From the IMG/VR virus record IMGVR_UViG_2630968500_000005: a stretch of DNA of 10,132 bases; one strand, given 5' to 3'. Of the stretch, positions 828-9,600 are shown piece after piece (position 1 is the stretch's first letter; each line of letters begins with the position of its first letter). The DNA is from a virus. Lineage: Duplodnaviria; Heunggongvirae; Uroviricota; Caudoviricetes. The position numbers and the translations under genes were made by a program. The notes below the pieces were generated by a model, which ran no database searches, was not told the origin of the DNA, and saw only the letters and a list, made by a program, of their open reading frames with translations.

Positions 828-1847
828 TTATTTGAACGGATTGATTGAATTATTAAACGTGATGATGCTTGTCTTACGCGGTGCCTGGACGTTAGCCGCT
901 TGCGGAACCTCCTTAATTTTCTTGGTGACAGGCAAGTTGCGTGCTCCAACTTTGATCAGAGATTCGAAAAGTGTGGCAACGATTTTTGCATCACCAGGTT
1001 CTTTGAGTCGGAATGCGTCTTTTTGGGCGGCGGAGACGAATATCGGGAGGTTATCCAGTTCGTCTTGCATTGCTGCCAGCACATCGTCGCGGATACCCGC
1101 AGTTTTCTCCAGCAAAGCGATTCGCGCTTCAGCATCTGCGATCTTGGCCATTGCTTCGAGGTGGCGGCCCTGGCTTTCGAGTAGTGCGGTTTCCAGTTCT
1201 GCCGTACGCTCTGTCGCCTCCACCATCATTTCCAGTTCAGCCATTTTGCCGTAATGGGATATAACGGCCTGCACTGACTCGTCGGAGTACCCATGCGCCG
1301 CCAGGGACTCTGCCAGTAAGGATTTAGAATCCGCGCTTTCAAACATTCCGGCGCTGGCAGGATGATCCAGACTGATATAGTTCGGCGTTGTCACATAATC
1401 CACACCATGGAAGCTGGTGGTTACAGCGATTTTCCCGGACTCACGCCCGCCAGTGGCCCAGCTCCAGCCACCAGCTCGGCTTTCGATCATCGCGGCGACA
1501 ATTTTACCCGGCTCTGTGTTAAGAATTTCCTGTGTATGGGTAACGATGCCGTTGTCGTCAACAGATATAGCCACTGTGCGGCACGCTGGAACATTGTCGA
1601 TTACGACCGGGCGACCTTCCACCATGATCACGCTGGTTTCTGGTACTTCCAGTTTGCCGGTCAGCTGTCGGCGACCGTGACCGTAATAGCCGAAAAGCTC
1701 ACCAAGGCGTAAACCTTCCTGAGTTTCCTTGCTTTCAAGCATGGTCTTTACCGCGCTTAATACATACTGTCGCCCGTTCTGGCGACCTTTTCTAGCATTA
1801 CTATAGAGACAAAAGCGGTCAGTGACCGTTTTCAAAACATCAGTCAT
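828..1847 (-). CDS. pro: prohead (head-processing) protease with C-terminal coiled-coil, scaffold-like region; P1 Pro-like
   Basis: Minus-strand ORF with stop at 828-830. The ORF-track start at 1877 is a TTG. The in-frame ATG at 1845-1847 is preceded by GAGGG with 8-nt spacing and overlaps the prt stop (ATGACTGA), so 1847 is the preferred start (339 aa). The C-terminal third is Ala/Glu/Leu-rich with heptad-like periodicity (...[49 protein letters not shown]...). The protease assignment rests on synteny with portal and lysozyme in P1-like phages; no catalytic motif was verified. Confidence 0.65.
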
Positions 1848-3549
1848 TCTCGTTTCCCTCTTTAAAGACCGATTCAAGGATTTGCGCCAGTTCCTGTGGC
1901 GGTGTTTTGATGATGGAATCCATCAGGTGATCGTCGTCCTCGCTTTTCGCTTTCAGTTCGTTCACCAGTGCTTCAGAGATTTTTTCGTCAATCTCCAGCA
2001 CATCGCTGAACAGGTAACGTTTGAATGCATCGGAATTGGCGAGGACGCTGTTATTGCTGACGGCATCGAGGATTTGCGTAACGATGGTGGCGTAGTTCGC
2101 CTGCGAGTCGCGGTTATCGTTGTGCTCTTGTTGCAGAGCGGTATTAACGGAGTGGAATTCGATTTTGTACGGGCGATCACCTTCCGGGTATACCTTGCCG
2201 TACTTGAAAGCAAGATGAATATCGATAGCCCGCTGAATGAACTCTTCTACGCCCTGCTGGATCCATGAGGCGCGCATGGCGGCCTGAATTGCCGTGCGCA
2301 GGAATCCACCTTCACCAAGCCCGCCGGACATTTGATCTGCCCACCCCAGGAGGGTGTAATCGAGGCCAAGTGCTGCCGCCAGCTGGCGCATATAGGTGAG
2401 AATGTCTTCAATGCCGTTGATATCAGCCTGGATGGTCTGAGTATCAATAGTCATCTGTCCCTTGCCGTCGCCCATAATAGGCAGCAGGGTATTGGTCACC
2501 GTAGGCATGTTATTCGCGCCGCGTGCGCGCTTTTCCATCAGGTCAGCTGCTCGTTTAAGCGTCTGAGTAATGGTGCGCGAATAATCGGCTGCTTTTACCG
2601 GATCCAGACTATTCATCGCCAGGCCGATGATTCGGTCAATTTTCGACGCATTAAAACGCGTTGCCTTCAGCGAGCGGATCGCCGAACGCAGATTCATGTA
2701 CGGCTCGTAGGCGTATTCGAGCAAGCTGGTCCCGTAATTCTGGGTTTCAATCGGCGTGCGCTCTTCCGGATTATCCAGCAAGCTGTATGCTTTATGGCCA
2801 GTGTGCACAGGCATAAGGTTTGACTTAGGCCGCCAGTAGGGGATTTTCATAGGGATAATGGCCCACGGATCGGCGAAAACCATTTTCCCTGACGCGCCCT
2901 TCAGATAATCGCCGCTAAATCCCGCCAGGTTTCCGCTGACCTCGAACTCTTTGATGAAGCCCGGAAGGGTGTAATAGGAGCACTCAAAAGACGTGATCCC
3001 TATGCCTTCTTTGGCGTATGGCCTGACATAAGCCACCCCAAATACAGACATGATAAATGCCCACCCGGCGACCTCTTTGTTGATGGTTCGCCCGATGTCG
3101 TTCATCAGCTCGTCACACAATGCCTGCGCGGCGTCATAGTCACTATCGTTTCCGTTATGTACCGGCACGATAGAGAAGGTTTGTCCGGTCTTCTTATCGA
3201 AAGAGAGCGCGTGCGTAATATGGATGTTCAGCGCGGTGGCGATCGTGCTGTAAACCGCCATCTCTTCGAGTAGCGGATAGCGTTGCAAGCGATCTTCCGG
3301 CAGTTGAACTTCATCAAAGATAAAGCGACTTCCGTCCACCAGCCCATCGCCAGCCATGCCACTATCGCCCGGTTTGCCGCCTAAGAAGCCGGACAGTTGT
3401 ACCGGTGCCCCTGCGCGAGAAAACAAATACCCACTTCCGCCGTGCACAGCCAGCGCGGACAGGAGGATGTTGTCCCGTTCTCCGTTGTCTTTAAAAACCC
3501 CCGCCAGCGCCTTCCTGACCGAGGATAGCGTGATTTTATTGTCTGCCAA
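1840..3549 (-). CDS. prt: portal protein (P1 Prt-like), 569 aa
   Basis: Long minus-strand ORF immediately upstream of, and overlapping, pro. Size about 64 kDa with an acidic C-terminus (...[13 protein letters not shown]...EGNEND), typical of portals. Start appears to be TTG at 3547-3549 preceded by AAGGTG with 5-nt spacing; the next in-frame ATG is 64 codons downstream. Identity is inferred from size, position and recalled P1 gene order (darB-prt-pro-lyz), not from a verified domain hit. Confidence 0.65.
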
Positions 3550-6600: not shown

Positions 6601-9600
6601 CAGGATATGCTTTATGACTTCGTTGCTGCCGGGCGCGTAGCCAGCGCAATGAACTCCGACTCCCACCGCAAAGAGGCCGCGCGTCGCCGGGTATTGTCGG
6701 AGTATTCAGATACCGGTACCGAAAAAGCAGAGAAGTATCCGTACTTTGAGGATATGGGCTTCGACAGCGTGATTGCTGACGAAGGCCACAACTACCGCAA
6801 TAGCTATAAAAATGGTCGCGAAGCGTCACAGCTGGCCTATCTGCCCACCAGCGCGGTGGCGCAATCGGCGCGAGATATGGCAATCAAAAACGCGTACCTG
6901 ATGAAAAAGAATGGCGGGCGCGGGCCGGTTCTCCTGACTGCAACGCCAGTCGTTAACACTCCGATCGATGCATACAACATGCTTTCTCATGTTCTGCCGA
7001 AGGAATACTGGCAGAAGATGGGGATCTACGGTCCTGATGACTTCGTTAAATTCTTCGGCAAGACCAGGCTGGAAACGGTACAGAAAATCAGCGGTGAAGT
7101 TGAAGAAAAAATGGCGCTGGTGGGCTTTGAAAACCTTGATGCGCTGCGCGGCATATTCCATCGCTGGACAACGCTTAAAACGGCGGAAGACGTTAAGGAT
7201 ACCGTGGAGATCCCGGAGCTGGACGAACACCAGCAGGATGCACCACTTACTGAAGAACAACTGGCGGCGTATGAAGAATTACGCCAGCAGGCGGAAGCGG
7301 CGGCCAAAGCCAACAATGGCGTAACGACCTCGGTCGATGAAGACGGAGTGATTGAGCACGAGAAAGCCCGTCCGATCTTCTCAATAATCAGGGATATGGA
7401 CCGCGTATGTACTGACATGGACCTGTACTATCGCCGGATCACCTATCGTTTCCTGCCGGAGTACGCCGATGCAGTGCAGCAACTGGCGGACAGTTTGCCT
7501 AAACAAGCCACCAGCGAAGACGACGACAGTGATGATTCAATCACGCAGCAATCGCAATACTCCCTGATAGATAAGGGCGAGTTTATTCAGTTGCAGGTTC
7601 CGGAAGCGTTTGAGCAGGAAGTGAATAAGCGCCTGGCCAGGTTTGGCATTGACGAACAGACCGTAACTCACCCCGTTACACCCAAATACGCGAAGCTGAT
7701 CGCCACGCTGAAGGAGTTTTTCCCGGAAGGTAAGCAAATCATCTTCACGGACGAAAAAACGCAGCACCAGAAGCTCAAGCGCATTATCTGCAATGCTCTT
7801 AACCTTGAACCTTCAAAGGTGGGGATCCTGAATGCTCAGACGGTTGCCGAGGCAGGTAAAACCGGTAAGAAACTGAAAGCGGTTAAACCGCCGAAAGAGT
7901 TACCGGATGAACCAACAGATGCACAGATAGCGAAATACAACGAGCAAATGGCTCTGTATGACGCCTATATCGCGCAGCAAAATGAAATGTCGTTGGGCGG
8001 TCTGGAAAAGATTGCAGCCGACTTCCAGGAGGGCCGGACTCCGATCATCATCTGCAACAAAAAGGCAGAGGTGGGTATCAACCTGCATCGAGGAACGACG
8101 GATATCCACCACCTGACGTTGCCGTGGACTCCAGCCAGTATCGCACAACGTAACGGTCGCGGTGCCCGAGTTGGCTCCAACCGTGCAAGCGTTCGCGTTC
8201 ATTACTACTGCGGCAAGGGGTCTTTCGATGAATACCGACTGAAGACGCTGAAGCGTAAAGCAGGCTGGATCTCCGATATCCTCCGTTCAGATAAGTCAGA
8301 AATGGAGAACGCCGATGCCAACGATATGATCGAAATGCAGATGTATACCGCTAAGGATGATGGCGAACGTCTGGCAATGATGCAGGTTCAAATGGATAAG
8401 GCGAAAGCCGCGCAACGCGCTCGCCAGAAAGAACAGGCTACTATCGACCTTCAGAACTACATCAAGGCGCAGCACGCAGCTGGCGAGGATGTGGAGGTAC
8501 TTACCGCTGAATTAGAGCGAAACAAAGCGGAACTTGAAAAGACCACCGCCGAGGTAGCTAAATTCAAACAGGCGGCAATGGCCAAAGCAGCTGATAACGC
8601 AGACTGGAAGACCCGCTGGGGTAGCGTCCATCACACAGACCGTACGTTGTTAGCACAGTATCGCGCGTCGTTGAAAAGCGCCATTCAGCGCAAGGCTAAT
8701 ATCTCTCAAGCCATCTCCCGCTATGAGAAATTATTGAACCGTACTCAGAAGGCCGCGACGGATATCAAACGCCTGCGCCCGCTGGTGGAGGATGCAATAA
8801 ATAAAGGCATTCTGGATGTTGATCCTGATCTGGTTAACCATGCGAGTGAGTTCCTTGTTATCGGCGATCGCTCATGGCGTGTAGGCCAATACTACGATTG
8901 TGCCGGTGATATCGTTCGCATTAAGTCGCTGGACTTCGACAGCCAGCGCGCAGACGTGGAGATCATCTTTACCTTCAAAGGCACCAAATCGGGTAACTGG
9001 GATGTGAAGACGCTGGATAAACAGGTAGATGTGACTCCCGATGAAGATGCTGTTATGCAGAAAATCAGTGGTGGCGTCTCCATCGCCGGGATTAACGGCA
9101 TCATTTCCTGTGACGATTTCTACCGTTTCCAGCAGCGCGGCATGATCAAAATCACTGACTCATACGGCGTTCAGACTACAGAGTCAGGCTATAGCATTGA
9201 TTTTGTTGGTACCTATACGGACCCACTGAAGCATGCGGTTTACCCGGATCGCCGTGACGGCGCGCTGAAGTCGTCAATTGCTAAATGGGTGCTTGGTATG
9301 ATGTCGGAAGGGAATAACCGCCAGGTCCGTTTGGCAGAAGTATTCCTGACTGAACTGTTTGGCTCCAATTATAGCGATGTAATCGCGTCATACGGAGATA
9401 CGTTATCCCCTGAAGCAATTCAGGAGAAAATAGCGGATGCGATCGCCAGAATGCCGGAGAAAACAAGCCAGGGGGCTACTCGTAACGGGGATTCTGAACT
9501 TGAGATCACCAATGCCATTTTCGGTACCAATGAGTTCCGGGCGTCAGATTTTGAGGTCACCACAGCACAGTTTGGCCCCATTGGCATTTACAGCAATAAA

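Follow-up and report, generated by a model that had tools for sequence, protein, structure and literature searches.

Why do 10,132 bases of phage-derived DNA carry twelve copies of a single octamer, the recombination signal Chi? The stretch (IMG/VR record IMGVR_UViG_2630968500_000005), hereafter the window, was analysed at its full length by an exact-match search for 5'-GCTGGTGG-3' on both strands. A first-pass annotation had reported twelve Chi sites, six per strand, against about 0.4 expected, an enrichment of roughly 30-fold. The search recovers all of them (n = 12, six on the plus strand and six on the minus strand), and the enrichment holds: the expectation is 0.36 under an order-0 Markov model, and dinucleotide-preserving shuffles of the window (n = 200) contain on average 0.29 Chi and at most 3. 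Markov models of order 3 and order 5 raise the expectation to 1.3 and 3.6. The analysis set out below indicates that Chi sites are probably kept by selection in the lineage of phage P1 for the circularisation, by RecBCD and RecA, of linear, terminally redundant virion DNA.

The window is the reverse complement of P1 10991-20860 at 98% identity, which bears out the P1-like assignment made earlier, and contains lyz (5' end outside the window), lydD/lydE, pro, prt, and darB. The only record with a 100% match over the junction between darB and an insertion sequence (IS) is the 148,192-bp plasmid NZ_CP060066.1 of Escherichia coli strain G5, from human faeces. The RecBCD enzymes of enteric bacteria are specific for the Chi octamer (PMC12315714); the source record is an E. 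coli plasmid, and the relatives of P1 come from Escherichia, Salmonella, and Shigella. Judged by exact sequence in an E. coli plasmid, the twelve octamers are genuine Chi sites. All are intragenic, and all have exact counterparts in P1. In the lists, a Chi-capable context is a peptide context able to encode Chi by any synonymous choice.

828-1847, minus strand: pro (head processing gene); 2 Chi; 2/2 Chi-capable contexts used
1840-3549, minus strand: prt (portal gene); 1 Chi; 1/1 contexts used
3625-9870, plus strand: darB (defence against restriction; methyltransferase/helicase), first 2082 codons; 9 Chi; 9/13 contexts used

1413-1420, plus strand: Chi in pro, antisense (gene strand ACC-ACC-AGC); P1 19441(-)
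1468-1475, minus strand: Chi in pro, sense, GCT-GGT-GGC (Ala-Gly-Gly); P1 19386(+)
3336-3343, minus strand: Chi in prt, sense, xxG-CTG-GTG-Gxx (Leu-Val); P1 17518(+)
3804-3811, plus strand: Chi in darB, sense, CTG-GTG; P1 17050(-)
4777-4784, plus strand: Chi in darB, sense, GCT-GGT-GGT; P1 16077(-)
4968-4975, plus strand: Chi in darB, sense, CTG-GTG; kept in Cronobacter phage JK004
5300-5307, minus strand: Chi in darB, antisense, xCC-ACC-AGC (Thr-Ser); kept in JK004
5489-5496, minus strand: Chi in darB, antisense, xCC-ACC-AGC; exact match
6845-6852, minus strand: Chi in darB, antisense, xCC-ACC-AGC; exact match
7116-7123, plus strand: Chi in darB, sense, CTG-GTG; kept in JK004
7508-7515, minus strand: Chi in darB, antisense, xCC-ACC-AGC; kept in JK004
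8781-8788, plus strand: Chi in darB, sense, CTG-GTG; kept in JK004

Relative to the genes, seven sites are sense (five xxG-CTG-GTG-Gxx and two GCT-GGT-GGx) and five are antisense. The antisense sites (5300, 5489, 6845, and 7508 in darB; 1413 in pro) share one gene-strand frame, xCC-ACC-AGC (any-Thr-Ser); the remaining two antisense frames are used 0 times in pro, prt, and darB, where none is available.

Chi outnumbers every other octamer in the window (12 copies; runner-up 7), in P1, and in the 148-kb source replicon. When the background is corrected for the sub-words of the octamer, Chi is still over-represented: the maximal-order Markov model gives an expectation of 9.9 in the window (z = 2.8), and in P1 the same model (Markov-6) gives 35.1 (z = 5.3), making Chi the most exceptional of about 55,000 octamers. 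As a sanity check on the P1 ranking, the core of the C1 operator is among the next most exceptional words. In the window the maximal-order test comes close to circularity, since nearly all copies of the sub-words lie within Chi (GCTGGTG, 12/13; CTGGTGG, 12/13; CTGGTG, 12/17). Lower-order models, whole-genome statistics, and codon-preserving shuffles were used in its place.

The codon-preserving shuffles permuted synonymous codons gene by gene, so that neither the protein nor its codon usage changed. The shuffled genes carry 0.78 +/- 0.84 Chi, with a maximum of 5 in 5000 trials, as compared with 12 observed. In pro, prt, and darB together, 12/16 Chi-capable peptide contexts spell Chi. The contexts of the twelve sites are mutually unrelated, and the flanks of the 50 Chi sites of P1 hold at most 0.14 bit per position. 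Since the flanks carry essentially no information, the unit under selection is exactly the octamer, and the sites are independent of one another, not copied from a repeat. Selection in the P1 lineage on the DNA sequence itself has retained the sites, mostly via synonymous codon choice.

A diverged relative gives a replicate. The pro-prt-darB region of Cronobacter phage JK004 aligns to the window at 76% identity, and 5/12 window sites are intact at orthologous positions, as compared with 12.9% of all octamers in the alignment (P = 0.013); for darB only, 5/9 are kept (P = 0.005). The seven other sites are absent, mostly through 1-4 base differences (1-5 overall). JK004 has 10 Chi in 12.2 kb, five of which (1875, 2032, 6080, 10856, and 11074) fall where the window has no Chi or is unaligned, and its orthologous genes use 10/17 Chi-capable contexts versus 1.6 expected. 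Retention and turnover both point to continuing selection for Chi density: as read from the alignment, individual predicted sites turn over while the high density persists.

The first-pass annotation described P1 as unusually Chi-rich. This is correct: P1 holds 26 + 24 = 50 sites in 94.8 kb, in a 31/19 orientation, and the count equals the published figure. A context map of P1, built on 103 annotated coding sequences that were all translation-checked, gives 45/116 Chi-capable contexts used, as compared with 5.7 expected from codon usage. Use varies strongly along the genome (P1 coordinates):

0-10.5 kb: 7/12 contexts used
10.5-20.9 kb, the window region: 14/18 (78%)
20.9-32 kb: 5/12
32-64 kb: 3/33 (9%), near the neutral expectation
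64-94.8 kb: 16/41

Use in the window region departs from that elsewhere in P1 (Fisher P = 0.0004), as does use in the 32-64 kb segment (Fisher P = 2e-5), where the tail fibre, baseplate, immI, oriL, sheath, capsid, par, and oriR genes lie. From the pac cleavage site at 90,805, packaging proceeds toward lox, which is at coordinate 1. Half of the sites (25/50) fall less than 26 kb downstream of pac, and the 22-64 kb segment contains only 6. Mapped on the P1 reference, the source replicon being rearranged, the window corresponds to 15.0-24.9 kb downstream of pac. Thus, on the P1 reference, Chi occurs on both strands and clusters downstream of pac, where headful ends fall.

Published work on P1 supplies the RecBCD/RecA dependence and the packaging geometry. 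RecBCD recognises 5'-GCTGGTGG-3' only on approach from the 3' side (bioRxiv 10.1101/2021.07.08.451572). Circularisation of the terminally redundant virion DNA of P1 requires host RecA and RecBCD, and P1 forms no plaques on recA, recBC, or Chi-recognition-tunnel mutants (PMC12315714; bioRxiv 10.1101/2021.07.08.451572). The virion DNA has terminal repeats of 5-10 kb and is packaged in about four headfuls per series (bioRxiv 10.1101/2021.07.08.451572); therefore, the molecular ends and repeats fall 0-40 kb downstream of pac.

In the mechanism that we favour, P1 has no substitute of its own for the host recombination pathway. RecBCD would enter each virion end, degrade and unwind the DNA up to a correctly oriented Chi, and there load RecA onto the 3' tail; the two terminal repeats would then recombine to yield a circle. 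Because loxP is 4 kb from pac, Cre can circularise only the first headful, the one with loxP in both repeats, and later headfuls, with repeats 5-40 kb downstream of pac, rely on RecA and RecBCD. The plus-strand sites of the window would be active for RecBCD moving from right to left in window coordinates, that is, in the packaging direction after entry at the pac-proximal end, and the minus-strand sites for RecBCD entering from the other virion end. The 6/6 balance would thus be useful, since each strand would serve RecBCD from one end. A dense cluster in both orientations at this position is a prediction of the circularisation model. By analogy with characterised Chi, these predicted sites would stimulate RecBCD-RecA recombination in an orientation-dependent manner. 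The sites, their enrichment, the selection at the nucleotide level, and the positional pattern in P1 are shown here; we infer that circularisation is the selected step.

Several points weigh against this reading. The link between P1 Chi and circularisation is correlative. The source replicon is without much of P1, so that the proposed function cannot operate in this molecule. The region 64-91 kb, upstream of pac, is also Chi-rich (16+/5-), which is less directly predicted by the model; such a skew would fit leftward-moving RecBCD from right-hand virion ends. Finally, the density of the window (1.18 per kb) is about 2.2-2.3 times the mean of P1 and about 8 times that of non-P1 DNA on the same plasmid (0.15 per kb), but the G+C content is 52% as compared with 47% in P1, and the raw excess over the P1 mean (Poisson P = 0.007) becomes only marginal after correction for G+C and for the scanning of several windows. 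We rely on context usage for this reason, in which the local peak of the window is clearer (78% versus 32%).

The main benefit of selected RecBCD control could lie elsewhere: it would protect rolling-circle tails and concatemer ends during lytic replication, and the low-copy plasmid prophage after a break, from degradation, instead of acting on injected virion DNA that needs circularising. Such a role would suit the enrichment far outside the terminal-repeat zone (e.g., 16/41 contexts at 64-94.8 kb), and Skutel et al. 2024 (PMC11109961) make the case that plasmids with double-strand breaks are rescued by Chi. The sites also persist in a P1-derived plasmid that is probably not packageable, but at 98% identity this persistence reflects recent ancestry. 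Break protection predicts a more even or origin-centred spread, and fails to explain the near-neutral 32-64 kb segment (3/33), where oriL, oriR, and par reside. We consider it unlikely as the main selected function, with general protection of rolling-circle tails and prophage breaks a possible contributing benefit beside circularisation.

The position of the cluster in darB raises the question of restriction. EcoKI restriction is alleviated by plasmids that carry darB or part of it even in the absence of DarB protein, in a manner that depends on Chi and EcoKI sites, and darB has 11 Chi, with none in other dar genes (Skutel et al. 2024, PMC11109961). The gene is the same as ours: 9/11 sites lie in the window and the other two in the displaced 3' part, and the site at 3804 is inside the first 350 codons, the fragment to which those authors assign one Chi. 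Chi-dependent recombination of P1 DNA, whether entering the cell or already there, would expose unmethylated type I sites and so draw EcoKI into ClpXP-mediated restriction alleviation. However, the effect requires that the plasmid itself carry an EcoKI site, of which the window has none (AAC N6 GTGC; 0 versus 1.5 expected, not significant). Such sites are also absent from P1 darB (the closest lie at P1 9917 and 21862), so the EcoKI site of the published experiment must lie outside the darB sequence studied here. Sites of the EcoB type (TGA N8 TGCT) number three in the window (5406, 7733, and 7763) versus 1.5 expected, also not significant. The adjoining non-dar genes (pro, prt, ref, mat, and cre) are as Chi-saturated as darB, and Skutel et al. 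call the effect a general property of plasmids and claim no natural role for it. A second DNA-level role of the saturated darB-pro cluster beyond circularisation, for example in type I restriction alleviation on entry, is accordingly improbable, and a DNA-level anti-restriction role of the darB cluster that complements DarB protein is very improbable. If true, the cluster would be part of the anti-restriction apparatus of P1.

Much of the Chi excess of E. coli itself has been explained as a by-product of composition or codon usage. Applied to the window, an excess arising from amino-acid composition, codon usage, or G+C content without selection on the octamer could draw on the common CTG-GTG frame of 5/7 sense-strand sites, on the G+C content above the P1 average, and on the maximal-order expectation of 9.9. 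The within-gene synonymous shuffle rules it out, with none of 5000 trials above 5. In addition, five sites lie on the antisense strand of their gene, expectations from composition are just 0.3-3.6, the sub-word-conditioned model leaves z = 5.3 in P1, and genes at 32-64 kb of the same phage are without the effect. We therefore regard this explanation as scarcely tenable. To the idea that these octamers are part of some longer dispersed repeat or bind a phage factor unrelated to RecBCD, a generic possibility for any over-represented word with nothing specific in its favour, we give practically no weight: nothing is conserved beyond the octamer in the flanks of the 50 P1 sites, the sites are spread over different genes and reading frames, and the word is host Chi in a phage whose growth needs RecBCD including the Chi-recognition tunnel.

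The molecule from which the window derives is not an intact phage. P1 homology ends at window position 9870, and the final 262 bases (9871-10132) come from the 5' part of a reversed IS3/IS911-like element; their reverse complement encodes an OrfA-like N-terminus (MRAKERLPRKHYSPEFKMELV...). Consequently, darB is interrupted at codon 2082 and followed by an IS-derived reading up to 10098; the 2157-residue open reading frame at 3625-10098, annotated as 'N-6 DNA methylase', is this fusion of darB running into IS sequence. The replicon carries the remaining 3' end of darB about 69 kb off, at NZ_CP060066.1 71547-72789. Only 36.0 kb of the plasmid is homologous to P1, as 11 rearranged segments interspersed with IS26, IS3, IS5, IS1, and chromosomal-type cargo (112 kb of non-P1 DNA). 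NZ_CP060066.1 lacks P1's tail/baseplate region (about 21.5-49 kb) and also its 64-79 kb stretch. The plasmid is probably unable to form virions, because the tail region is missing and the backbone is fragmented, and thus is probably a defective, domesticated phage-plasmid. Its cargo includes the lac operon, the fec operon, dcuB/dcuR, ompC, and an 11-kb gene for an Ig-like-domain protein with a TolC/HlyD export set.

The mosaic provides an internal control. The P1-derived DNA holds 34 Chi in 36.0 kb (0.94 per kb) and the 112 kb of non-P1 DNA holds 17 (0.15 per kb), about 6-fold fewer per kilobase. Because the replicon is a rearranged P1-derived mosaic, the Chi cluster is an inherited feature of the plasmid. 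After double-strand breaks it can still function as Chi and rescue the plasmid, but not in the circularisation of virion DNA. The function first proposed for these sites, attenuation of RecBCD degradation and stimulation of RecA loading that would protect linear or broken phage DNA and promote recombination, agrees with the published model, except that Subramaniam & Smith favour hotspot-stimulated recombination over simple protection as the selected function (bioRxiv 10.1101/2021.07.08.451572), and that "phage DNA" does not describe the present replicon.

All elements of this finding are known for P1. Later papers attribute the count of 50 Chi and their over-representation to Lobocka et al. 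2004. Subramaniam & Smith (bioRxiv 10.1101/2021.07.08.451572; later Adv Genet 2022) reported that Chi is P1's commonest octamer, with 31 on the top strand, and is denser toward the pac-linked 'ends', for which they gave a headful explanation; they advanced several codon-usage arguments for direct selection of Chi, and described the same features in P7, D6, and NGUA22. In D6 and NGUA22, pac has been reported as inverted. The account was repeated in Genome Research 2025 (PMC12315714) and extended to lambdoid phages without a Rec module. A literature search on P1 headful ends and Chi returned nothing beyond the papers cited here. The Chi-richness of P1, the clustering downstream of pac, the orientation on both strands, and the circularisation model are thus already published, as are the octamer ranking and the orientation of Chi relative to pac and its density in relatives (P1, P7, D6, and NGUA22). 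Our additions are refinements, namely the context-saturation measure (12/16 in the window, 3/33 in mid-genome), the JK004 replicate, and the within-replicon control.

The window has the same sequence as P1 in all that matters here: the twelve sites are among the 50 of P1, and top octamer rank, occurrence on both strands, density downstream of pac, and failure of codon usage as an explanation are shared with P1 and its relatives. Nothing essential differs, apart from the rearranged mosaic plasmid in which this copy sits. The LLS-class lambdoid phages (PMC12315714) are likewise without their own recombinase, are Chi-enriched, and depend on RecBCD for growth, but their Chi sites are nearly all in one orientation and clustered at one cos end. 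P1, unlike these, has headful packaging, permuted ends, and Chi in both orientations (6/6 in the window; 31/19 genome-wide). The E. coli chromosome has the same octamer, RecBCD recognition, and orientation dependence, at a density below half of that of P1 (bioRxiv 10.1101/2021.07.08.451572). Chromosomal Chi is co-oriented with replication, and codon usage largely accounts for it; the window is about 5-fold denser, balanced in orientation, and has an excess independent of codon usage. The P1 pattern is the clearest case of Chi apparently selected directly as a recombination signal and not via codon usage, and shows, as the literature has pointed out, how a phage without its own recombinase uses host RecBCD. 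The window is a clean illustration, in which nearly all Chi-capable codon contexts spell Chi, and adds no new biology.

Some features of Chi spacing were noted in passing. The sites 1413 (plus) and 1468 (minus) in pro form a tight "plus then minus" pair. P1 has four tight pairs, each of which reads GCTGGTGG...CCACCAGC on the top strand and has 14-57 bp between starts; those outside the window are at 30342-30363, 36337-36359, and 38471-38535 (L003 numbering). Given the regional density, pairs within 60 bp are not significantly enriched (P = 0.12), and the shared orientation gives P = 0.003 in a post hoc test. Gaps of 179-227 bp between neighbouring P1 Chi sites are seemingly in excess, again as judged post hoc. 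Between pmgS and pap of P1, one of these pairs, at 83737/83752 in P1 coordinates, folds into an 11-bp stem with a T-run after it, placing two Chi within a terminator-like hairpin.

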